Positions 7,280-17,794 of a DNA stretch of 64,000 bases are shown piece by piece; the stretch's first letter is position 1; every line of letters starts with the position of its first letter. Below the pieces are notes generated by a model. That model searched no databases. It saw nothing but the letters and a program-made list of their open reading frames with translations, and had not been told where the DNA came from. The translations under genes were made by a program, and so were the position numbers. This DNA is from Pyrodictiaceae archaeon (GTDB lineage Archaea; Thermoproteota; Thermoprotei_A; Sulfolobales; Pyrodictiaceae): assembly GCA_040514295.1 (NCBI GenBank), contig JBEVCE010000039.1:29524-93523 (forward strand), written 5' to 3'.

Positions 7280-8500
7280 GTGCCAGCAGCCATGGCTAAC
7301 AGGGTTGCATTAGTCTTATCACTATCTGTGTTCCTATTCTTTGCTGCAACTATGGGGCTTGGATCCATAATAACCAGGTACGCTGATTATCTGGGTGCAG
7401 GTGCTACGGAGGCTGGGGCAGTATACTCAGTAGCCTCTCTCATTAGCGCCTCTCTAAGAATCCCTATAGGCATGCTGGCGGATCGGTTTGGCAGCGTGCC
7501 CTTCATGGTACTAGGCTTAGCCTTCTCAGGTATAGCGGGATTGGCGGCAGCCATGTCTACTAGCGTCGCTCATCTCTACCTAGTTAGGGGGATCCAGGGT
7601 CTAGGCATAGCATCGTATATCGCTCCCTCGATAGCAGTAGCATCACTCCTAGCTAAGGATGTCAGGGATACTGCGAGGATCCTTTCATACCGGTCGGCCT
7701 CGATATCGTTGGCCCTAATAGCTTCTCCCCCTATTGCAGCCTGGCTGGTCGATAACATTAGCTTCCAAGCAGCCTTCCTATACGTGCTAGCAGTATCCCT
7801 AGTGGGGATACCTGTCACGCTGATCCTATTACGCTGGACTCCTAGGAGTAGGCTGGTAGCGGCTGGATCCAAGGCCTGGAGGAAGGCTCTGAGAAGAGAT
7901 GTTGTTAAAAGGAATGTAGCTATAGTAGTAGCTCTAGCGTTTCTCGACGGCTCAGTATTCATCTCCCTACAAGCTATACCGCAGTATGAGGTTGCGGAGA
8001 TAGGGTTGCCGGCCACTGTTTACGGTATGTTCCTAACACTTTACGGGGTTGCAAGCTTCTCCGCCAGAATATCCTCATATAGAGTCATGGACTCCATAGG
8101 CCCGATTAACACAATGATATTAGGCATTGGCTTCGAACTCTCCGGTGTCTCCCTCCTCTCTATAGTGCATGGATCTAGGCTGCTCCATCTCTTCTACATC
8201 TCCGGCATACTCTATGGGCTTGGCCTTGGCCTCCTTGTGCCCAGTGAACAGTATGTGCTCCTCTTAGGCGTCTCACGGGAGACGAGGAACACTATTGCAA
8301 GCCTTTACGCGGTAGGTGTTGATGTGGGAGGAGGTGTTGGGACTATAGCCTACTCGGCCATAGCCGATCTCCTAGGCTATACAGTGGCCTACCAGGCCAT
8401 GGCAGTAATTGAGTTGGTAGGACTCCTGTTAGTCATTCTAGGCCTAGCCCGTGGTGCTCCTCAACCCTCTATTCTCCGGCTTCCTGATTTACCCTCTTAG
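7280..8500 (+). CDS. MFS (major facilitator superfamily) transporter
   Basis: 406 aa with about 12 hydrophobic segments. MFS loop motif GMLADRFGSVP between TM2 and TM3. Confidence 0.8.
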   Translation: MPAAMANRVALVLSLSVFLFFAATMGLGSIITRYADYLGAGATEAGAVYSVASLISASLRIPIGMLADRFGSVPFMVLGLAFSGIAGLAAAMSTSVAHLYLVRGIQGLGIASYIAPSIAVASLLAKDVRDTARILSYRSASISLALIASPPIAAWLVDNISFQAAFLYVLAVSLVGIPVTLILLRWTPRSRLVAAGSKAWRKALRRDVVKRNVAIVVALAFLDGSVFISLQAIPQYEVAEIGLPATVYGMFLTLYGVASFSARISSYRVMDSIGPINTMILGIGFELSGVSLLSIVHGSRLLHLFYISGILYGLGLGLLVPSEQYVLLLGVSRETRNTIASLYAVGVDVGGGVGTIAYSAIADLLGYTVAYQAMAVIELVGLLLVILGLARGAPQPSILRLPDLPS

Positions 8501-8720
8501 CCCTAGACACTATCAGCCAATCCCTTAGTATGGTTATTGATGCCGAGATGAAGACAAAACCTGCTAGGCCAGCCATGATGCCAGCCACTACCCTTGGAGG
8601 ATCACGCTCTAGGAGTGCTAGACTGTACGAGAAGAACGCTATCGAGAGATAGAGCATTACGGCAGCAAAGGCTATCGCTGCACTCATCCTGACAAGCTCC
8701 TTGTCTACGCTGAGCCTCAT
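8469..8720 (-). CDS. Small two-TM membrane protein, last gene of the MoxR operon
   Basis: 83 aa with two hydrophobic helices. Its start lies 4 nt after the stop of the 408-aa ORF, and it is co-directional with the operon. Confidence 0.5.
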   Translation of the reverse strand: MRLSVDKELVRMSAAIAFAAVMLYLSIAFFSYSLALLERDPPRVVAGIMAGLAGFVFISASITILRDWLIVSRAKRVNQEAGE

Positions 8721-8724
8721 GGTA

Positions 8725-9951
8725 TCATCCCCATAATAGTTTTACCGCGAGTTCTAGGAGCTTCTCACTATCCTCTAGACTACGAGTTATGTTTGTTAAA
8801 GCCTTCTCCACCTTAACGTCAAACCCGGCTGGCTCTGGTATCCTACCCCTAGTGAACAAGCCTATTAGGATCTTAGCTGGGTTGAACCCGTAGAGAAGGC
8901 CTAGCGCCACGACGGTTACGGCTAGTATTGCAACTGAGGCTACTAGCATCCTTATCCACCCCTTTGGCCCTGAGAGGCCGGTGACCATAAGCCATCTCCC
9001 GGCATAGTAGGCTAGCGTACCAAGAGCCATAGCTGACACTATGGGTATTGCTTGGACTAGTATGCCTGGAAGCCTATATCCCCCAATAAGGCTTTCAGCA
9101 TAAGGTAGTAGCATTAATGCCATGGAGTAGCCTATGAGGGCTGATGGTATCGAGACGACATAGCCTAGTGCCTGCTGGTGTATAACCTGGTACCAGCTCT
9201 TCCTCCTCCTGAGCCTCTCATACTCTTTCCCAAGGTATCTATCAATGGACCTTGCTAGGGCTTCTGGTGGTGCAGCTATAGCTAGGCCTAGTGGTGTTAC
9301 TATCCTAGAGACGAACGCATATACTATGCCTATAAACGTGAAATAGACTATTGCCTGCAGCAATCTAGTTGATCTAGCTGCAACCCATATGTCTGCTAGC
9401 AAGCCGCTAGGTGTGTAGGATAACATGTAGCTTATAATGCTTCTCAGTGCTACCACGGAGTAGTATGTTATGCCTATTAGGGCAAGATATGCTATGATGA
9501 AGGATAGGATACTTAGCAGCTTGCAACGTAGCTTACACAAGTAGTGGATCGTATCAGGGCTGCCATGCTTCTCGGTATAGTATCTTGTAGAGAAGCTTGA
9601 GAATATACAGGATGTCATGAATAGGGTTAGTAGCAGGGGTAGTCTTGGAGCTACGAGGTAGGGGTCTGCAAGTAGTGCGGCTGCTATAGAAAATACTGCT
9701 ATAACTGCTCCTATGGCACGGTAGGGCCATGCCAGCACAGCTAGTGCTGAAGCAATAGATAATAGTGTAGGCGTGTTGGCGAAGACAATCCTCACCGACG
9801 AGGATTCTATGAGTGCTAAGAGAGGCATTAGCAGAGGGACTACTAGCGAGAAGGTTGTGTAAACGATATATGCGTAGAGGAGGGCTGATGCACCCCTCAA
9901 TATAAGCCATAAGCTTAGTCTAATGATTCTAGCATTCCTCAAGGCAGGCAC
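8725..9951 (-). CDS. Polytopic integral membrane protein (about 10 TM), no family recognised
   Basis: 408 aa, mostly hydrophobic helices, with one cytoplasmic-looking basic loop (DRYLGKEYERLRRRKSWYQ). The start overlaps the DUF58 stop by 1 nt. Confidence 0.65.
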   Translation of the reverse strand: MPALRNARIIRLSLWLILRGASALLYAYIVYTTFSLVVPLLMPLLALIESSSVRIVFANTPTLLSIASALAVLAWPYRAIGAVIAVFSIAAALLADPYLVAPRLPLLLTLFMTSCIFSSFSTRYYTEKHGSPDTIHYLCKLRCKLLSILSFIIAYLALIGITYYSVVALRSIISYMLSYTPSGLLADIWVAARSTRLLQAIVYFTFIGIVYAFVSRIVTPLGLAIAAPPEALARSIDRYLGKEYERLRRRKSWYQVIHQQALGYVVSIPSALIGYSMALMLLPYAESLIGGYRLPGILVQAIPIVSAMALGTLAYYAGRWLMVTGLSGPKGWIRMLVASVAILAVTVVALGLLYGFNPAKILIGLFTRGRIPEPAGFDVKVEKALTNITRSLEDSEKLLELAVKLLWG

Positions 9952-11345
9952 TATCCCATCCTTCTATAAGCCTCGAGTCTAGAGAGGATCATGGAGAGTA
10001 GGTCTGTAGGGCCAGCAGCTAAGACCTTGATGCCTTGTGACCTTAGTATACGGAACATGTCACGGTACTGCTTTATCCTCTCGAAGGCAAGTAGCCTATA
10101 GATCGCAGCGTCAATGCCCTTACCTAGCGCTCTTACCTCGAATAGCGTGGTTAGTGGGGTGACAGCTATCACCTCGTGACGTAGCCTTATGAGTCTTGAA
10201 AGCCTCTCAGCATAAGCCTTGGCGGCCTCCGGGTCTTCATGGAAGTCCGTTAGCAGCATTACGATGGTTTTTTCTCTAGGGAGTATACTTGTTAGCGTCT
10301 TGGAGATAGACTTAACCCTATCCTCGTAGCTTACTCTACTAGCTTCGTCTAGGCTAGGCCATTTAACGGCTGCTAGCCTTCTAAGCGCTATTATACTAGT
10401 CTTCCGTCCTCTAAGCCACGGTGTAGCCGAGGCTTCTCCTTGGGTCCCTGCGACTAGGAGAGTGTAGTAGTCTCCCCGGCTAGCAAAATAAGTTGCAAGT
10501 GATGCTGCAAGCCTCATGCTATATTCTAGCTTCGTTTCCCCTACAACACCATATATCATTGTTGGTGTCACGTCGAGCACTATTATAGCGTATAGTGAAA
10601 CCTCCTGCTCGAACTCCTTGACCATGAGCTTCCTAAGCCTAGCATAGGCCTTCCAGTCCACGAGTCTTATATCATCCCCAGGCATATACTCCCTAACGCT
10701 GTGGAACTCTGTACCTGAGCCCTTCCTGCCAGTCTTCGAAACCCCCGTTGGAAGCGCTGTGGCAATAGAGATCATTATTCTACGTGGTAGTCCGAGGGGC
10801 CTTGGTTGCACCCTTACACGTAGCCCTGTTTTGACTATCCGCTCGGCTCTGAAGAGGCCTAAGGGATCCTCCAATATTAGCCTGGTCTCGCCCCACTCAT
10901 GCTCGCCCATGACAAGCCTAACCCTATACTCTATGACGGCCTCGCCGCCAACTGGTAGGAAGACTACTGCTCGGGGTGCCACGCCAGCTGGTATCTTGAA
11001 GAGTCTTGGGGGGTTATCGATCACGTCTAGCCTTTCTATAAGGATAGGGCTTTTGTTGACTATTCTGAGCCGTACCTTAGCCTCTTTACCCTCAATTAGG
11101 GGTTGTTCAAGCTCATGCTTTACCTCTAGTGAGTCTAATATTGACGCTTTCAAGGCAAAGTATTGTCTAAGCATGATGACTACGATTATTATCGCCATGC
11201 CTATCGAGAGCAGGTAGGCTTGAATCTCGCTGGGAGAGAAGAAGCCTGCTACTGCTAGGAGAGCACCTAGAAGTATAAGAGCTCTGCCATAGCCTGTTAT
11301 TGGAGCTTCATATTCTGTTAGATAGCTTCCAGGGCCTTCAAACAA
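9951..11345 (-). CDS. DUF58 domain protein (vWA-like partner of MoxR ATPases) with N-terminal TM pair
   Basis: Signature block GTEFHSVREYMPGDDIRLVDWKAYARLRKLMVKEFEQE followed by a vWA-like region (LYAIIVLDVTPTM). Confidence 0.85.
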   Translation of the reverse strand: MFEGPGSYLTEYEAPITGYGRALILLGALLAVAGFFSPSEIQAYLLSIGMAIIIVVIMLRQYFALKASILDSLEVKHELEQPLIEGKEAKVRLRIVNKSPILIERLDVIDNPPRLFKIPAGVAPRAVVFLPVGGEAVIEYRVRLVMGEHEWGETRLILEDPLGLFRAERIVKTGLRVRVQPRPLGLPRRIMISIATALPTGVSKTGRKGSGTEFHSVREYMPGDDIRLVDWKAYARLRKLMVKEFEQEVSLYAIIVLDVTPTMIYGVVGETKLEYSMRLAASLATYFASRGDYYTLLVAGTQGEASATPWLRGRKTSIIALRRLAAVKWPSLDEASRVSYEDRVKSISKTLTSILPREKTIVMLLTDFHEDPEAAKAYAERLSRLIRLRHEVIAVTPLTTLFEVRALGKGIDAAIYRLLAFERIKQYRDMFRILRSQGIKVLAAGPTDLLSMILSRLEAYRRMG

Positions 11346-11379
11346 GCCTGGAGGCCTCGCTCTTCCAGTAGAATTTGTT

Positions 11380-12324
11380 CTAGGGCACTGGGACCTCCAC
11401 GCTCTCCAATATGTTCTCTACAATCTTGGACGCTGTTACCCCCTCAACCTCGGCCTCAGGCTTAAGTATGATGCGGTGGGGTAGCACGTAGCGTACAGCC
11501 CTCTTGATGTCATCTGGTATCACATAGTCCCTGCCATCCATCCCCGCTAGTACGCGCCCAATCTGCTGCAACGCTATCGCTGCTCTTGGAGAAGCGCCTA
11601 GCCTTACATCAGGATGCTTATGCGTCGCCTCAACAATGCTGATGATATACTCTCTCACTTCCCTGGACACCTTTATCCTCCACATCTCCTCCCTAGCCTC
11701 TAGAATGTCCTTGGCTGATGCTACTGGTCTTAGAGGCCACTCGTTGATGGTCTTTATCCCCTCTAGTATAGCCATCATTACCTCTCTACTAGGGAATCCT
11801 ATCTCTATTTTTGTTAGGAATCTGTCTAGTTGTGCTTCTGGTAGTGGGAATGTTCCTTCAAGTTCTATCGGGTTTTGTGTTGCTATCACCGTGAATGGTT
11901 CTGGTAGCCTCCACGACTCACCCTCAATAGTAACCTGCTTCTCCTGCATAGCCTCGAGGAGAGCACTCTGGGTACGAGGACTAGCACGATTAACCTCATC
12001 AGCCAAAACAATATTAGCAAAAATAGGGCCCTTGCGTAGGCGGAAGTCGCCTAGCTTCTCGTCAAATATCATTGTCCCTATTACGTCGCTTGGCAGGAGG
12101 TCGGGCGTAAACTGTATCCTCTTAAACTCTAGGTTCAGCGCTGATGCTATTGCCTTGGCTAACGTTGTTTTAGCCACCCCTGGAACCCCCTCTATCAGCA
12201 CATGGCCGTCAGCTATTATCGTAGCTAGTATTATCTTGGCCTCCTCATCTAGCCCATAGACAACCTTACGTACCTCCCCTAGGACAGCGTCAACAAGAGT
12301 CTTTATCTTACCTTGTGAGTTCAA
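11380..12324 (-). CDS. moxR: MoxR-family AAA+ ATPase
   Basis: Walker [34 protein letters not shown], Walker [31 protein letters not shown]. 314 aa is a typical MoxR length. Confidence 0.9.
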
Positions 12325-13672
12325 ACTCGAGACCCCTTAGCTCTCTAAGACTTACGCCTATAGACTCGAATATCCTGTCAGCGCCTTCTATATGGTGTAG
12401 GAGCGCTCTCCTCCACCTTAAAACTATGGGTAGCCTCCTCTTACCACTAACTTTTAAATAAAGTCTATGAAGGCTTGTGAGTTCTCCCTTCAGCCAGTCT
12501 TTATCGAGCCCTGTTCTCGCAGCTAGGAGAGATAGCTTAACATCATCAGCTAGTACCTCCTCGACGCCCGCTCCAAGCCTCCTCTCAAGTACCATGTCTA
12601 GGGCCTCGTATAGGTTTTGGAGTGCTCTCTTAGCCTCCTTAGAGCTTATCTCACCCCTTCTTAGCAACTCATAGATGCTTGTAAACCCATAGACTGCTAT
12701 GGGTGTTAAGGGGCCTGGTGGCGAGAAGTAGGCTAGTACCCTTTCAAGGCTCCTAGCTATAAGCATATAGGCTAGGGCTCCTAGTGAGAGGACAAGGAAG
12801 AGTAGTAACCATTTAACTCTGCCTAGGAATTTTATGAAGGATTCTTCTAGCTGGGTATAATACTTTGTGATCATGGCAACTAGCACACCTGGGTGGAAGA
12901 GGGCCATGGGGCTCCTCGATATTAGCTCGTCTATGCTTGAAACATAGGCTCGGGCTGGGATAATTATAAGCGACGAGGAATTATCAGGGGCCATTAGCCT
13001 AGTGAGGTACTTTGCAAGCTCCATGATACGTGTCTCATTGAGCCCGAGGAGCGCGTTGGTGAATAGATGGCTATCAGAGAATAGTACTACCAAGAGCCCC
13101 TCAGAATAATACTCGGCTCCAATAGTATAGCCCGGGGGGTACACTGTCCTCGAGAACGACGTCCAGCCTTCTATGAGGCTTAGGGGCCTAGCAGTATAAG
13201 CGATATAAAGGCCCTTAGGGTATTCAGCGGCTACAGCCTTAAGCCCGTCAACGTTTATCACGGCACCGCTAAAGCCGGGAGCCGAGCCTACTATACGCGA
13301 GATTAGCTTCAAACACTCCTCGTCCTCCGAGGATACTATAATGCTCGCAACCCCTCCCTTCCCCCTCTCAGCTTTAACGGCACCAGCTATCAGCGAGCTT
13401 AACCCCTCATCGCAATGCCTCGGCCCAGGAAGCCATATAAGCAAATAATCTACTCCCTCAAGGCTCCTAGGAACCTCATAGGCAATCCTATAGCCCATAC
13501 TCCTCAGCAAGTCTACAAGCATGCTATGGCCTAGGGGGCCCGTATCCCCTGGAGACCCCGTCCCAGAGGCTAGAGGACTCCCCTCGAGCACTATTAGTTT
13601 AGGTGTAGCGGTGACAGCCGCCAAGAATGCTATGAGCAGCATAACTGCCTGAAGCCATCTAGGCCCAATCAC
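12308..13672 (-). CDS. DUF4350-like membrane-anchored protein
   Basis: N-terminal signal anchor. [37 protein letters not shown] and [25 protein letters not shown] resemble the DUF4350 pattern as I remember it. A central TM ([19 protein letters not shown]) is followed by a helical cytoplasmic tail. Overlaps both neighbours (4 nt and 17 nt). Confidence 0.6.
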
Positions 13673-16623
13673 CTTAAAACCCTCTTGATAGCCTCAACTA
13701 TCCTCTTTACATGCTCCTTACTCACCGGATGGTCGCTAAACTTGGCCTCCTCATAAGCTAGTGCCGCCTCGTGATAATACTTTCTAGCCTCGCCACTCAC
13801 CATAGCCTCGTACTCTCTATGTGTAGCGTAGGGGGGTTTAGGGCCATAGACCTTGGAACAGGCTTCTAAGAGCTGCCTAAACCTAGCTATGATCTCCCAT
13901 CTCAGCTCCTGGGGCTCCTCTCCTTGTAAGCCTCTAAACCTAGCTCTAACGATAAGCCTCGTTGTAGCTCTTCTCACGAATAGCGTTAAGTTGCCTTTAT
14001 AGCGGTAGAGGATGGCTACCAGCAAGGCTAAGGTGGAAACCGCTACCACGCCCATAATGGTCTCCCGGGAGCCTAGTAGCGGTAGCCCGGCTGCAGGTGC
14101 TTCGAGTCCGGGAAGGCCTGGTAGGGGTGGCAGGCTCCAGCCATGCCCAGCCCCTCTCGAGGAGAAGGGTCCGGCAAACCCTCCTATTCCTGGTAACAGG
14201 CCTAATCCTCCTAGACTTCTATTAGCCTCCCTCACCCTCCCGCTGAGGCTACTTGAAGCCTCAAGCAGCTTGCGCAGAATATCCTCGCCCCCATGTAGCC
14301 TTATCACCTCTATGATCTTCTCCCTCAGCCCGGTGCCGCTCAAGGCCTCCATGACATCCCTTAGCCCGCTAGGCGAGCTACTAGTCCTAGCAGTCTCCTC
14401 CACCATTCTAGCCATCTTCTCTATACTACCGCCAGACTTCCCGATGATAAAGCCTCTTATGAGCCCCCTATACTCATCTAGGTTTATTGTAAGCCCCTTA
14501 TCCTCGAGCCTAATACTAGACAGTTTGGCTAGGCTCAGGAAGGTATCTAGATCCAGGTCGAGGCCACGCCTCCTAAGCTCATCCCTCAGCCTCTCAGCTA
14601 GCATCATAGCGGTAGCGTAATCCCCTCTCTCTATACTAGACGCTATGCCCTCTACTAGTCCAGCTAGCTCTGGATCCCTTTGCCTTAACAGTCTTGCAGC
14701 CTCTTTAGCCCTCTCAACGAGAGCAGCGAGATTACCTTTAGCTAGCTCCTTGGGAGTGGACACGGTGGGTATGAATCCATAGGCCCATAACCTTAAAGGA
14801 TCCGTTGTACCGGGCTTTAGCCTCCACGGAGCCAGCTTACCATGCTCTGGATCAATCTTTTTCAGTAGGATATAGGCGGTAATCCTGAGGGTAGGCAGGA
14901 ATAAGACTAAGTTGTTGTTGATCTCTCTTAGTGATGCTGCACGCGCAAGCCACCCAGCCTCCTCAATGCTTCTAGCCCTTACACTTCCTCGTGCTATGGC
15001 AGCTGCTAGTCTAGCAGAGTCCTTGGCGATGCTCCCGCCGAACAACGTGATGTTCACATGCTCTTTTATCTCCTGGAGCGCGTCCCCTGACACCGGGATC
15101 GATAACCTTATCGCTAACCTAGACCACACCCTAGCTGAATCGTTAAGATAGGCCTTGAGAGCCTTTAGGGTGAAGTCCCTGGTCTCATGGTGTAGTGCTA
15201 GAGCCTTGTTCTCCCTCAATAAGCGTATAGCGTCACTTTTCTTAGCCATGGCCTTAAAGAACTCGTAGTCTGGGACTGCAAGAGGATTTAGTGAGAGTAT
15301 TGCAAGGGGTGTCGCAGCGGTAGCCAGTACTATGCTCGAGAAGCTTGTATTCAGTTTCTGCGATAGACGTAGCAGGTCCTTAGTGCTAAGCGAGAGGGCC
15401 TCAGCTATACCGGTGTTAACGGCCACTGACCACAGATAGGCAGCGCTCCAGGCTTCAGCATTCTCGGCGGCTATCAAGGCCGAGTATGCATCATTAAAGC
15501 CAAGGCTAGAGAAGCCCTTAGCCACTCTATTCCAGGGCTCAATCCACCTAAACCTGGCAAACACTAGCGAAGCTATTATAGGGTTTAAGAGGTTGGCCTC
15601 CCCTAACAGGCTCCAGAGGTCTAGTAGCCCTGGTTTAGACGTGGTATTAGCTATCCTAGGGCCGCTAGCATCAAGGTAAGATACGAGCGCTACTAACGAC
15701 AGAGTATAGGCCGGGCCCATGCCCCCGCTAGCCCTACTTAGGCTCTCACGAGCCTCCACCATGTCATGATACGTGTTGCTGGCGAGCATCATCACAGCGG
15801 AGGCGCATACGCTGTCAAGGTAGCGTATCGTGGGGAGCAAGTAGGAGTAGTCCACGGTAGCCTGGGGGCCAGCTATTTCCCTCAACCCTCTCGTAGCAAC
15901 ACTACGGGGGACGTACTGGTAGTTTATCTGAGAAAACAGGTAGCAGTAGTCCCTCCTATCCCTAAGCAGGCTGAGAGCCCTAGCCCAGAACTCGTGGTCA
16001 ATGCTACCCGTTAGTGCAGGGATAGCGGCTGCTATCCTTACCAATGGATTGCTAGTAGCATAACTTGTTAATACTCTTATCGCCCGTGTAATAGCTGGCG
16101 ATACATCGCTCGTATACCATGATAGCCGGGAGTGCCATATAGATGTCTCAAGGCTCCTTGAGAAGCCTTCCGCGATACCAGGGTCAACCAGCAACTCATT
16201 CGTAAGAGGCCTCGACAAGGATACAAGGAGAAACTCTAATAGTAAGGAGGCATTACAGCCTATAAGCTTACCTTTAGAGGCATCCTCAACGACCATTATC
16301 CTAATGTCCTCCATTAACGACTCTATGGATGTAGCTAGCTGGCTGGATAACACCGTATTATTCCGTGCCTTGCCGAGCAGTGTAGCCAGCTTTGAGGCCA
16401 TGACAGCTAGCGTGTTATCGGTTAGACACTCGGAAGCATTACCGGCTATGGACGATGCTGCTCCATAACTTATGGCTTGGGAGCTTAGCTTTTCAAGTAA
16501 CATCTTAACCTGACTAGCAACCTCCTCCTCGAAGCTGGAGTCGCCAGCGCTAGCGGGGACCATCCAAATGATGGCCGAGAATGCTAGCAATGATAATACT
16601 ATAACCGCGTAGAGTCTAGCCAA
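13669..16623 (-). CDS. 984-aa surface protein: signal anchor, about 830-aa unassigned alpha-helical ectodomain, Gly/Pro linker, TM, cytoplasmic DUF4129-like tail
   Basis: TTG start preceded by GGAGGGG. N-terminal MARLYAVIVLSLLAFSAIIWMVPASA. Linker GLGLLPGIGGFAGPFSSRGAGHGWSLPPLPGLPGLEAPAAGLPLLG. TM IMGVVAVSTLALLVAILY. The tail ...ATHREYEAMVSGEARKYYHEAALAYEEAKFSDHPVSKEHV matches the DUF4129 T-x-x-E-Y ... Y-E-x-A-x-(Y/F) pattern. Confidence 0.7.
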   Translation of the reverse strand: MARLYAVIVLSLLAFSAIIWMVPASAGDSSFEEEVASQVKMLLEKLSSQAISYGAASSIAGNASECLTDNTLAVMASKLATLLGKARNNTVLSSQLATSIESLMEDIRIMVVEDASKGKLIGCNASLLLEFLLVSLSRPLTNELLVDPGIAEGFSRSLETSIWHSRLSWYTSDVSPAITRAIRVLTSYATSNPLVRIAAAIPALTGSIDHEFWARALSLLRDRRDYCYLFSQINYQYVPRSVATRGLREIAGPQATVDYSYLLPTIRYLDSVCASAVMMLASNTYHDMVEARESLSRASGGMGPAYTLSLVALVSYLDASGPRIANTTSKPGLLDLWSLLGEANLLNPIIASLVFARFRWIEPWNRVAKGFSSLGFNDAYSALIAAENAEAWSAAYLWSVAVNTGIAEALSLSTKDLLRLSQKLNTSFSSIVLATAATPLAILSLNPLAVPDYEFFKAMAKKSDAIRLLRENKALALHHETRDFTLKALKAYLNDSARVWSRLAIRLSIPVSGDALQEIKEHVNITLFGGSIAKDSARLAAAIARGSVRARSIEEAGWLARAASLREINNNLVLFLPTLRITAYILLKKIDPEHGKLAPWRLKPGTTDPLRLWAYGFIPTVSTPKELAKGNLAALVERAKEAARLLRQRDPELAGLVEGIASSIERGDYATAMMLAERLRDELRRRGLDLDLDTFLSLAKLSSIRLEDKGLTINLDEYRGLIRGFIIGKSGGSIEKMARMVEETARTSSSPSGLRDVMEALSGTGLREKIIEVIRLHGGEDILRKLLEASSSLSGRVREANRSLGGLGLLPGIGGFAGPFSSRGAGHGWSLPPLPGLPGLEAPAAGLPLLGSRETIMGVVAVSTLALLVAILYRYKGNLTLFVRRATTRLIVRARFRGLQGEEPQELRWEIIARFRQLLEACSKVYGPKPPYATHREYEAMVSGEARKYYHEAALAYEEAKFSDHPVSKEHVKRIVEAIKRVLR

Positions 16624-16691
16624 ATAGAGTAACCCCTCCTAGCTCTAGGGAGAGAAGCACCTAATAGCTTAGCCCTCTAAGGAGACGCCTC

Positions 16692-17030
16692 ATGAGGGGC
16701 AGGAGGTTGAAGGCCAGAGTCTACGGCAACGAGGAGGTTAAGAGGATCATAGCATTCATCCCTCCAGGCCATTACCATGTAAGGCTGATACTTGAGCTAG
16801 CCGACAAGACAATAATACTCCAAGAGGCCACGGTGGCAGCTATAGTTAGGGCTTATGCATCCACAGCACTACATCCGACGAAAAGGGCTACGGAACTCGT
16901 GCACCGCGTCCTCTCCCCGAGGGATAAAAAGCAGGGGTTTGCAAGCCACCAGCTCGTCGAGTCAAGTAGGCGGGAGGACGAGATCCTGGAAGAGGCTACT
17001 AGGATTCTAGAGGAGGCTGAGAGGGGCTAG
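16692..17030 (+). CDS. Hypothetical 112-aa protein
   Basis: ATG-started ORF whose stop lies 2 nt before the start of the next gene. No recognisable motifs. Confidence 0.5.
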   Translation: MRGRRLKARVYGNEEVKRIIAFIPPGHYHVRLILELADKTIILQEATVAAIVRAYASTALHPTKRATELVHRVLSPRDKKQGFASHQLVESSRREDEILEEATRILEEAERG

Positions 17031-17032
17031 CA

Positions 17033-17794
17033 TTGAGGAGGCCCTACGTGCTACTCTTCTCCACTATGACGCTTGATGGAAGGATAGCTTCCTCAACAGG
17101 GTATAGTATGCTAAGTTGTAGCTACGACCTAGCTAGGCTAAGGCTTCTAAGAGGCTATGTAGAAGCTGTCATGGTCGGTGCTAATACTGTTCTCGCCGAT
17201 AACCCGTCTCTCGAGAAGAGGATTGAGCCTAGGACAGCGAGATACTACAGGATAATTGTCGATGGTAGGCTTAGGACAGCCAGGCACGCCGATAAGCTAA
17301 GAATCTATAGTGGGCAAGGCCCGCCAGTCATAGTTATCACCGGCCTCCGAGATAAAGAGGCTATAAGGCTTTTAAAAGAGCATGGCGCCAGCATAGTCGT
17401 AGCAGGTAGTGATGGTAGAGTCGACCTAAGAAGAGCCTTGAACATACTCCTAGAGGAGTATGAGATAAACTCCATTCTCGTCGAGGGTGGGGGTATATTA
17501 GCCTATAACCTCGCTAGAAGCGGCCTCCTAGACGAAGTCAGAGTCACGGTCACTCCCTTCGTATTCGGCTCTGGTAGGAGCATCTTCGACGACCCCCAGG
17601 GCAGGGGCTTTACAACGACTGCTGAGTCGCCTAAGCTTGAGCTGAAATGCGTCGAACACTGCCCGTGCGGCCACTGTATACACTTAGCCTATCGTTTTAC
17701 CCCGTGCTGCCCAGCAGAATCTAGCCCAGAGATACCATATTGTTTATCATCTAGGCTAGCGGCTTACCTCTCTCATCGAGTTGAAAAGGGCTAA
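17033..17794 (+). CDS. ribD: 2,5-diamino-6-ribosylamino-4(3H)-pyrimidinone 5'-phosphate reductase (RibD C-terminal domain family, riboflavin/F420 precursor pathway)
   Basis: PYVLLFSTMTLDGRIASSTGYS...AVMVGANTVLADNPSL...ILVEGGGILAYNLARSGLLDEVRVTVTPFVFG is a typical RibD_C/DHFR-like reductase. TTG start. The C-terminal ~30 aa overlap the convergent gene by 39 nt. Confidence 0.85.
   Translation: MRRPYVLLFSTMTLDGRIASSTGYSMLSCSYDLARLRLLRGYVEAVMVGANTVLADNPSLEKRIEPRTARYYRIIVDGRLRTARHADKLRIYSGQGPPVIVITGLRDKEAIRLLKEHGASIVVAGSDGRVDLRRALNILLEEYEINSILVEGGGILAYNLARSGLLDEVRVTVTPFVFGSGRSIFDDPQGRGFTTTAESPKLELKCVEHCPCGHCIHLAYRFTPCCPAESSPEIPYCLSSRLAAYLSHRVEKG

Follow-up and report, generated by a model that had tools for sequence, protein, structure and literature searches.

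MoxR ATPases act together with vWA adaptors on specific clients, as exemplified by RavA-ViaA, CbbQ-CbbO and NorQ-NorD. Few uncharacterised ATPase systems of prokaryotic envelopes are as widespread as the MoxR-DUF58 modules, for which no client has been defined in archaea. A lineage-specific version of such a module is considered here, a conserved operon of six genes at positions 8469-16623 (minus strand) of a 64,000-nucleotide stretch of DNA from a Pyrodictiaceae archaeon (assembly GCA_040514295.1, contig JBEVCE010000039.1, positions 29,524 to 93,523 of the forward strand), the whole of which is called the window. For the archaeal neighbourhood of arCOG01314 (DUF4350, GldG-like), MoxR, vWA and membrane proteins, a novel complex serving secretion or the remodelling of membranes has been proposed (Makarova, Galperin, Koonin 2015, PMC5898192), and the same work records the arCOG01314 family in Thermococcales. 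Equally, a role in membrane-proximal proteolysis has been proposed for the widespread MoxR-vWA-YebA/TgpA transglutaminase operon (Zhang & Aravind 2012, PMC3495828), and MoxR-vWA-beta-propeller ternary systems have been proposed as conflict sensors (Kaur, Burroughs, Iyer, Aravind 2020, PMC7159879). Furthermore, the actinobacterial Esr pathway, whose gene clusters encode a surface sensor, a transglutaminase, MoxR, vWA and kinases, has been shown experimentally to sense epibionts (preprint, bioRxiv 10.64898/2026.09.08.750141), and the distantly homologous DUF4350-MoxR-DUF58-SpoIIM-RDD cluster of Mycobacterium chelonae is co-regulated (PMC8191103). No experimental work on archaeal versions was found in the literature searched.

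Judged from the predicted proteins and their neighbourhoods, the module of the window appears to be the arCOG01314 neighbourhood of archaea, which is a sister of the TgpA/YebA-DUF58-MoxR operon known from bacteria. The window is the variant with a long all-alpha head domain, and the comparisons show, beyond the earlier reading of this locus, that the 984-residue surface protein is the variable member of a constant core. New is thus the lineage-specific version, while the neighbourhood as such is catalogued already; nothing established is overturned, and the function is an inference.

Conservation of the gene block

Six co-directional open reading frames (ORFs) on the minus strand encode, in the order of transcription, a type-I membrane protein of 984 aa, hereafter the head protein (13669-16623), a divergent DUF4350/GldG-like protein of 454 aa (12308-13672), a MoxR-family AAA+ ATPase of the MRP type of 314 aa (11380-12324), a DUF58 protein of 464 aa (9951-11345), a polytopic membrane protein of 408 aa (8725-9951) and a protein of 83 aa folding into a hairpin of two transmembrane (TM) helices (8469-8720). 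The coordinates and spacings given in a first-pass annotation of the stretch are reproduced exactly by the ORF table. Head and DUF4350-like genes overlap by 4 nt and the DUF4350-like and MoxR genes by 17 nt; a 34-nt gap precedes the DUF58 gene, which overlaps the polytopic gene by 1 nt, and a gap of 4 nt precedes the hairpin gene. A purine-rich GGNGG-type motif resembling a Shine-Dalgarno sequence is located 8-14 nt 5' of all six start codons, as fits internal genes of a polycistronic archaeal mRNA, and the upstream intergenic region (16624-16691, minus strand) carries the Shine-Dalgarno-like motif GGAGGGG at 16633-16639.

Collinearity of the six genes extends from the window to five further independent contigs, at 25-70 % protein identity. 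These are the cultured Pyrodictium occultum (1013 / 453 / MoxR 317 / DUF58 467 / 406 / 95 aa), three Pyrodictiaceae-like contigs (L083, L084 and L086) and a Staphylothermus metagenome-assembled genome (MAG; L003), in which the head comprises just 365 aa. Identity to the window proteins is highest for MoxR (~70 %), followed by the hairpin protein (45-54 %), DUF58 (41-45 %) and the head, DUF4350-like and polytopic proteins (25-33 %). In two Desulfurococcales MAGs the block is rearranged. One of them, L002, retains all six components, with MoxR-DUF58 oriented divergently from the genes for the head, polytopic, small and DUF4350 proteins; in the other, L004, where the comparison covers the genes other than that of the hairpin protein, the head, polytopic and DUF4350 genes are divergent from MoxR-DUF58. 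The genes flanking the block in the window are functionally unrelated to it by their Pfam matches (radical SAM, MFS, RibD_C, EamA), and as flanking genes differ between loci, the conserved entity is the block itself. The same order across contigs together with the rearranged forms indicates a functional unit rather than chance adjacency. The six genes thus form one conserved operon, as had been annotated before, and the expected synteny of the 984-aa and 408-aa genes with MoxR/DUF58 was indeed found in relatives including P. occultum.

The wider family was surveyed in species-representative genomes at those 80 MoxR loci that are closest. The MoxR-DUF58 pair occurs at half of these loci (40/80); within 10 kb, proteins with a DUF4129 tail are encoded at 10/80 and DUF4350-like proteins at six, all of them archaeal. 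In a Promethearchaeota (Asgard) MAG (L006:5052-13548, +; JBHLMG010000001), the head consists of a TgpA_N fragment, Transglut_core (3.8e-17), Ig domains, a TM helix and DUF4129, and is followed by DUF4350, MoxR, DUF58 and a 419-aa polytopic protein. A Thermoplasmatales MAG (L052) possesses an Ig plus DUF4129 head, then DUF4350 and MoxR; the DUF4350 proteins of both MAGs also match ABC_transp_aux/GldG-type profiles. In the actinobacteria Micromonospora (L068) and Intrasporangium (L016), a DUF4129 protein of 242-271 aa is succeeded by a small TM protein, MoxR, DUF58 and a five-TM protein. These comparisons show a core composed of a DUF4129 tail, where present a DUF4350 protein, MoxR, DUF58 and an integral membrane protein, with an exchangeable extracellular head. 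The first-pass annotation overstated how little is on record about the neighbourhood, as both the archaeal arCOG01314 version (PMC5898192) and the sister operon with a transglutaminase (PMC3495828) have already been described. The Asgard operon is the clearest bridge from the bacterial TgpA system to the archaeal DUF4350 neighbourhood.

Architecture and predicted topology of the proteins

The head protein is composed of a signal peptide, an ectodomain of ~825 aa (aa 28-852; 14068-16542, minus strand) consisting of an all-alpha domain and, C-terminal to it, a disordered linker rich in Gly and Pro (~aa 805-852), one TM helix (aa 855-875; 13999-14061, minus strand; hydropathy peak 2.34) with a subsequent Arg/Lys-rich stretch and a basic tail (22 K+R versus 14 D+E) with a DUF4129 domain predicted to be cytoplasmic (aa 914-979; 13687-13884, minus strand). 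The ectodomain harbours eight N-x-S/T sequons (aa 29-849) and four Cys. The earlier assignment of the tail is borne out by the Pfam match to PF13559, which scores 33 bits against a gathering score of 24.8. Position of DUF4129 at the C-terminus past the last TM helix, as in TgpA, is equally seen in the heads of L002, L005, L016 and L068, and in an alignment of 14 sequences the residues T934, H935, E937, Y938, A954, Y957, E958 and F962 of this domain are invariant. The protein is identical to a Pyrodictiaceae MAG protein annotated as DUF4129 domain-containing; the polytopic protein is likewise identical to a MAG protein.

An AlphaFold2 (AF2) model of the head, based on the same 14-sequence alignment, is nearly all helix with a mean confidence score (pLDDT) of 63 and is confident at aa 40-290 (pLDDT 85-95), 500-590 and 610-730 and in the DUF4129 domain (81-90). 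Foldseek with this model retrieved generic HEAT/ARM solenoids and tape-measure proteins at a TM-score <0.2, with a best E of 0.14 in the PDB and 0.04 in BFVD, so no fold was assigned to the ectodomain; equally, the family profile retrieved from the PDB coiled-coil and designed helical proteins alone (E >0.07). When 1.84 billion representative proteins were scanned exhaustively with HMMER, just 23 relatives of the head emerged at E <= 1e-3, among them CF15_01165 / WP_058370163 of P. occultum. Most match the linker-TM-DUF4129 part alone and approximately 10 are proteins of 900-1200 aa with the same architecture. A word-indexed homology search provided one match for the head and two each for the DUF4129-tail and polytopic-protein alignments, nearly all of them the queries themselves. 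The closest relative of the window head is encoded on metagenome contig JOHN19-1 scaffold_225 (L081; 33 % identity). The ectodomain is a lineage-specific, fast-evolving domain that is all-alpha in the model. A unit made up of a helix, a beta-hairpin and a second helix recurs in the ectodomain model (aa 137-146, 565-575 and 704-713) and in the orthologues of L083-L086, and the local sequence of these units is alike (A-S-L/I-R ... V/L-x-I/V-D), which hints at a possible internal duplication.

The second surface protein comprises a signal peptide, an ectodomain (~aa 23-280), a TM helix (aa 285-307) and a helical tail of 145 aa. It fits the layout described by Makarova et al. (2015), with signal peptide, extracellular domain and single TM helix towards the C-terminus, to which the tail, predicted to be cytoplasmic, is added. 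In the Pyrodictiaceae clade, the ectodomain contains the invariant residues Cys87 and Cys120 as well as N-glycosylation sequons. A direct Pfam match, including PF14258, was absent at E <= 1, and this protein, the polytopic protein and the hairpin protein are also without NCBIfam match. Orthologues, on the other hand, score up to 69.4 bits against PF14258 (L006 69.4, L004 43.1 and L002 31.4 at a threshold of 30.4, L003 22.4, L081 and L082 ~15). Furthermore, hhalign aligned the Pyrodictiaceae clade with bona fide DUF4350 proteins (four members, three of them above the Pfam threshold) with a probability of 99.3 % (E 1.3e-20) over 372 columns including the N-terminal domain. These orthologue scores together with the profile alignment identify the protein as a divergent DUF4350/arCOG01314 member, so that its earlier label holds at the profile level and via orthologues rather than by direct Pfam match. 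Pfam gives no family for the 145-aa tail, and its consideration as a second DUF4129 domain was rejected (hhalign E 0.38).

The identities previously given to MoxR and DUF58 were recovered by Pfam. MoxR matches AAA_3 (9.3e-66, 220 bits) and AAA_lid_2 (1.4e-24, 86 bits), has its closest solved structure in an MRP-type MoxR (PDB 2r44, 1e-83) and exceeds the threshold of the bpMoxR Pfam family (37.3 bits versus a cut-off of 27). Walker A (GVPGVAKT), Walker B (LADE), sensor and Arg-finger and the SPR motif can be read from the translation, and hydropathy analysis reveals no hydrophobic segment, as expected for a soluble, cytoplasmic protein. The DUF58 protein, beginning 34 nt downstream, combines an N-terminal two-TM hairpin (aa 20-62; 11160-11288, minus strand) with a beta-rich segment and a DUF58/vWA-like domain (aa 216-396; 10158-10700, minus strand), matched by PF01882 at 1.8e-25 (89.8 bits, gathering score 23.4). 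The family signature G-x-G-x-EF..REY..GD..R.IDWK..AR...L.VK.FE.E is kept in seven orthologues. The first position of the metal ion-dependent adhesion site (MIDAS) is degenerate, reading DVTPT in the window protein and DAWPS, DETPS, DATPT, DASAE, NATME and ETSLF in orthologues. No solved relative of DUF58 was found in the PDB by sequence, and the DUF58 homologue of L006 also matches BatD and VWA_2.

The membrane topology is predicted consistently by two features. In all seven DUF58 orthologues the loop of the hairpin is uncharged or nearly so and Arg/Lys residues follow the second TM helix, which by the positive-inside rule would place the DUF58 domain in the cytoplasm. Equally, the head ectodomains of the seven loci possess 3-14 sequons, with 4-7 Cys in the long heads of the Pyrodictiaceae type, and the ectodomains of the DUF4350-like proteins 1-8 sequons, whereas MoxR, the soluble part of DUF58 and both tails contain nearly no sequons and nearly no Cys (no Cys at all in the soluble part of the window DUF58 protein). 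This distribution assigns MoxR, DUF58 and the two tails to one side of the membrane and the two ectodomains to the other; MoxR, the DUF58 domain and both tails are thus predicted to be cytoplasmic and both ectodomains to be outside. The protein layouts of the first-pass annotation, including the membrane anchoring of every partner of the ATPase, agree with the hydropathy of the head, DUF4350-like, DUF58, polytopic and hairpin proteins.

The polytopic protein has ~9-10 hydrophobic helices and matches no family in Pfam, NCBIfam or PADLOC; the absence of a family for it and for the head ectodomain, as had been noted from the sequence, was equally the outcome of Pfam. Its AF2 model from 11 sequences is unusable (pLDDT 44.7). 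W332 is invariant and (L/F/I)-W-G forms the very C-terminus. Within the Pyrodictiaceae clade it is clearly conserved at 22-31 % identity and ends in L/F-W-G; similarity of the clade to the Staphylothermus and L002 counterparts is marginal (hhalign E 0.006-0.008), so that the link beyond the Pyrodictiaceae depends mainly on position, size and the C-terminal WG, features that recur in P. occultum, L083, L084 and L003. Further candidates, the polytopic proteins encoded 3' of DUF58 in the Asgard MAG and between the head and DUF4350 genes in L004, showed no homology to it.

The hairpin protein carries the conserved motif DPPRVxAGxMAGLAGFxF...T.LRDW, and BLASTP against the Staphylothermus counterpart gives 4e-06. 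A metagenome scan with this protein retrieved six loci, several outside the operon context. Close homologues with the motif PPxVTAGLMAGLAGFTF outside the six-gene operon are encoded at L088:1143-1388, L090:1337-1630, L089:10001-10207, L092:1946-2398 and L093:1416-1601, two after a helicase-like gene, two alone and one directly after a MoxR gene.

In the surroundings of the operon in the window, an ORF of 112 aa (16692-17030, +) without Pfam match starts divergently 68 nt from the operon start and is directly followed by a gene with a RibD_C domain (17033-17794). At the other end, the 3' ends of the hairpin gene and of a convergent MFS transporter gene (7280-8500, +) overlap by 32 nt (8469-8500), and no structure resembling an intrinsic terminator is present between the two. 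A genomic island was considered and rejected, as the GC content of the operon region (0.49-0.535) is the same as in the remainder of the window; equally, a known defence system was rejected, as PADLOC yields generic AAA similarity alone. Among the related loci, a Cas_APE2256-family gene (L086:2728-3750, +) is located ~4 kb upstream of the operon, and on GCA_054016935.1 an encapsulin shell protein of 367 aa (Linocin_M18) with a fused rubrerythrin/EncFtn-like domain is encoded (L087:2615-3718, +) ~5 kb upstream of the homologue of the head gene. On JOHN19-1 scaffold_225, MoxR is followed by a 718-aa double beta-propeller (WD40/PQQ) protein (L081:15451-17607, +) with a signal peptide, a Thr/Pro-rich stalk and a C-terminal TM helix, which recalls the MoxR-vWA-beta-propeller ternary systems.

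Proposed function and rival explanations

The reading we favour, and hold tentatively, is that the six genes may encode a MoxR-DUF58 module that belongs to the DUF4129/DUF4350 class, is embedded in the membrane and serves remodelling. Two type-I proteins, the head and the GldG-like DUF4350 protein, would project outward, each ending in a cytoplasmic helical tail, which is DUF4129 in the head and the unclassified 145-aa domain in the DUF4350 protein. DUF58, held at the membrane by its N-terminal hairpin with the vWA-like domain in the cytoplasm, could serve as the adaptor that brings a MoxR hexamer to the two tails. By hydrolysing ATP, MoxR would then drive the assembly, activation or resetting of the complex at the surface, a control from the inside out, with the 408-aa polytopic protein and the 83-aa hairpin as putative integral-membrane partners of the complex. 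An action of MoxR on the tails is proposed because of the precedents for MoxR, vWA and client systems and because the tails are the sole parts of the surface proteins that MoxR can reach. The module as a whole is supported by the gene order and its conservation, the domain identities, the constant core with its variable head, the predicted topology, the gradient of identity from MoxR down to the head, DUF4350-like and polytopic proteins, and the co-regulation of the distant homologous cluster in M. chelonae. The suggestion of the first-pass annotation that an ATP-driven machine may assemble or mature a structure of the cell surface, and that the 984-aa protein may be its client, is likewise a reasonable hypothesis.

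Several observations weigh against this remodelling module. The vWA proteins of the arCOG01314 neighbourhood have been deemed likely secreted (Makarova et al. 2015, PMC5898192), and a secreted vWA would put the adaptor across the membrane from MoxR. As the MIDAS position varies among the DUF58 orthologues, classical metal-mediated ligand capture may not apply. Furthermore, L081 encodes head, DUF4350 and MoxR but no DUF58, polytopic or hairpin protein after MoxR, and a MoxR gene was not called in L087; these exceptions indicate that the six genes are not obligatorily linked. Homologues of the 83-aa protein elsewhere demonstrate that it is not exclusive to the operon. Operon structure, domain identities, synteny, predicted topology and the pattern of a variable head on a constant core are shown; how DUF58 meets the tails, in which direction the module acts and what its output at the surface is are inferred.

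A more specific form of the remodelling module, a transmembrane mechanotransduction machine in which a MoxR hexamer on DUF58 pulls the tails of the DUF4129 and DUF4350 proteins and thereby switches the conformation or oligomeric state of the lineage-specific, rapidly diversifying surface protein, appears doubtful. If true, however, it would be an analogue of integrin-like inside-out activation in the Pyrodictiaceae, serving adhesion, cell-cell networks or virus receptor exposure, and the transglutaminase, Ig and all-alpha heads would be alternative outputs of one conserved engine.

The main rival is sensing in the opposite direction, outside-in, whereby the head ectodomain would perceive viruses, neighbouring cells or envelope damage and transmit the signal via the DUF4129 tail to DUF58/MoxR, in line with proposals for the MoxR-vWA ternary conflict systems and the actinobacterial Esr pathway. 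That the ectodomain is the fastest-evolving and most replaceable part would fit a sensor, although quick divergence is usual for any surface-exposed archaeal protein. Equally, MoxR passes the bpMoxR threshold (37.3 versus 27 bits), but its AAA_3 score of 220 bits is far above the bpMoxR score. The TM-anchored WD40/PQQ beta-propeller protein after MoxR in L081 and the experimentally demonstrated sensing of epibionts by the Esr pathway (bioRxiv 10.64898/2026.09.08.750141) also speak for it; on the other hand, no kinase, FHA, effector or toxin domain occurs in or beside the operon at any locus examined, and PADLOC finds nothing more than generic AAA similarity. We consider this sensing role to be unlikely.

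The secretion and proteolysis readings are less likely for this variant. In the first, DUF4350 and the polytopic protein would form the conduit of a novel secretion system that MoxR energises or assembles for the export of a surface protein. Such a system has been predicted for neighbourhoods of arCOG01314, the family of the 454-aa protein, with MoxR and vWA (PMC5898192); in addition, all partners are membrane proteins and the DUF4350 proteins of L006 and L052 match profiles of the ABC_transp_aux/GldG type. MoxR, however, is a remodelling AAA+ protein not known as a translocation motor, the polytopic protein matches no transporter or channel family, and the operon encodes none of the Ig-like S-layer proteins (arCOG02884, pfam07760) that the model includes. 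Furthermore, the head and DUF4350-like proteins have Sec-type signal peptides and so require no dedicated exporter, and overall this secretion system seems rather improbable.

Membrane-proximal ATP-dependent degradation, for which vWA would recruit and MoxR unfold a substrate that a transglutaminase-like peptidase cleaves (PMC3495828), has its best argument in the Asgard MAG, where the gene order is the same and the TgpA-like head contains Transglut_core (3.8e-17), which indicates that the TgpA and DUF4350 systems are evolutionarily connected. In the window, however, none of the six proteins contains a transglutaminase or other peptidase domain (Pfam, NCBIfam), the all-alpha AF2 head is incompatible with a papain-like fold and the head domain is extracellular rather than adjacent to MoxR, which makes degradation very unlikely here. 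Finally, chance adjacency or unrelated functions of the genes, hardly credible despite the members missing from L081 and L087 and the paralogues of the hairpin protein in other contexts, is effectively refuted by synteny, namely the collinearity of the six genes in six independent contigs whose proteins are 25-70 % identical and whose flanks differ, the retention of all six components after rearrangement in L002 and the overlapping or tightly spaced genes with Shine-Dalgarno-like motifs.

Returning to the remodelling module, the comparative picture is one of a constant cytoplasmic engine (MoxR, DUF58 and DUF4129 tail), a constant GldG-like protein and an exchangeable head. A constant engine with an exchangeable head makes the DUF4129 tail the probable handle and thus the interaction of DUF58 with the tail directly testable. 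As the operon is present in cultured P. occultum (CF15_01165 to ~CF15_01190), this species can be the starting organism. Furthermore, the locus defines three unannotated families that are specific to the Desulfurococcales and Pyrodictiaceae, represented by the ectodomain of the head, the polytopic protein of 408 aa and the hairpin protein of 83 aa.

Comparison with known systems

The Bacteroides Bat (aerotolerance) operon and other MRP-type MoxR-DUF58-vWA operons share with the window an MRP-type MoxR followed by DUF58 and an association with the cell envelope. Unlike in the Bat operon, BatA/BatB TM-vWA and BatC/BatE tetratricopeptide repeat (TPR) proteins are missing, with DUF4129 and DUF4350 partners instead; neither vWA nor TPR was matched by Pfam in the polytopic and hairpin proteins. 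With the MoxR-vWA-beta-propeller systems (PMC7159879), the locus has in common a pair of MoxR and a vWA-type protein with a variable third component as well as a MoxR that passes the bpMoxR threshold. It differs from these ternary systems and from Esr in that the operon and its flanks are without propeller, effector and kinase/FHA genes, the propeller being confined to the L081 variant.

The actinobacterial cluster of the Rv3689-Rv3695 type, consisting of a membrane protein, DUF4350, MoxR2, DUF58, SpoIIM-like and RDD proteins, resembles the operon of the window in that integral membrane proteins border DUF4350, MoxR and DUF58 in both; its M. chelonae homologue is co-regulated (PMC8191103). Its accessory proteins are SpoIIM-like and RDD, whereas the polytopic and hairpin proteins match neither SpoIIM (PF01944) nor RDD in Pfam at E <= 1 in a sequence-profile search. 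Also, the actinobacterial heads of L016 and L068 reach merely 242-271 aa compared to the 984 aa of the window head.

The operons of the TgpA/YebA type (PMC3495828), a group that includes the Bifidobacterium PFNA cluster and the EsrD-containing Esr clusters, equally couple the MoxR-DUF58 pair to a membrane protein that carries a cytoplasmic DUF4129 domain after its last TM helix. In place of the transglutaminase core, TgpA_N and Ig domains, the head of the window has an all-alpha domain of ~800 aa, and the DUF4350 protein and the membrane proteins are encoded separately. Accordingly, Pfam gave no match to Transglut_core in the six proteins of the window and none to TgpA_N (DUF3488) at E <= 1 in the head and polytopic proteins or their orthologues.

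Compared to the arCOG01314 neighbourhood (PMC5898192), the DUF4129-tailed head and the ~10-TM and two-TM partners are additions that do not appear in Table 2 of that work, an Ig-like S-layer protein (arCOG02884/pfam07760) is found by Pfam neither in the operon nor in its flanks, and the DUF58/vWA domain is predicted to be in the cytoplasm rather than secreted. What the operon of the window does share with this archaeal neighbourhood is its centre, where a DUF4350/GldG-like protein, which has a signal peptide and a C-terminal anchor, is encoded beside a COG0714 MoxR, a vWA-type (DUF58) protein and further membrane proteins.

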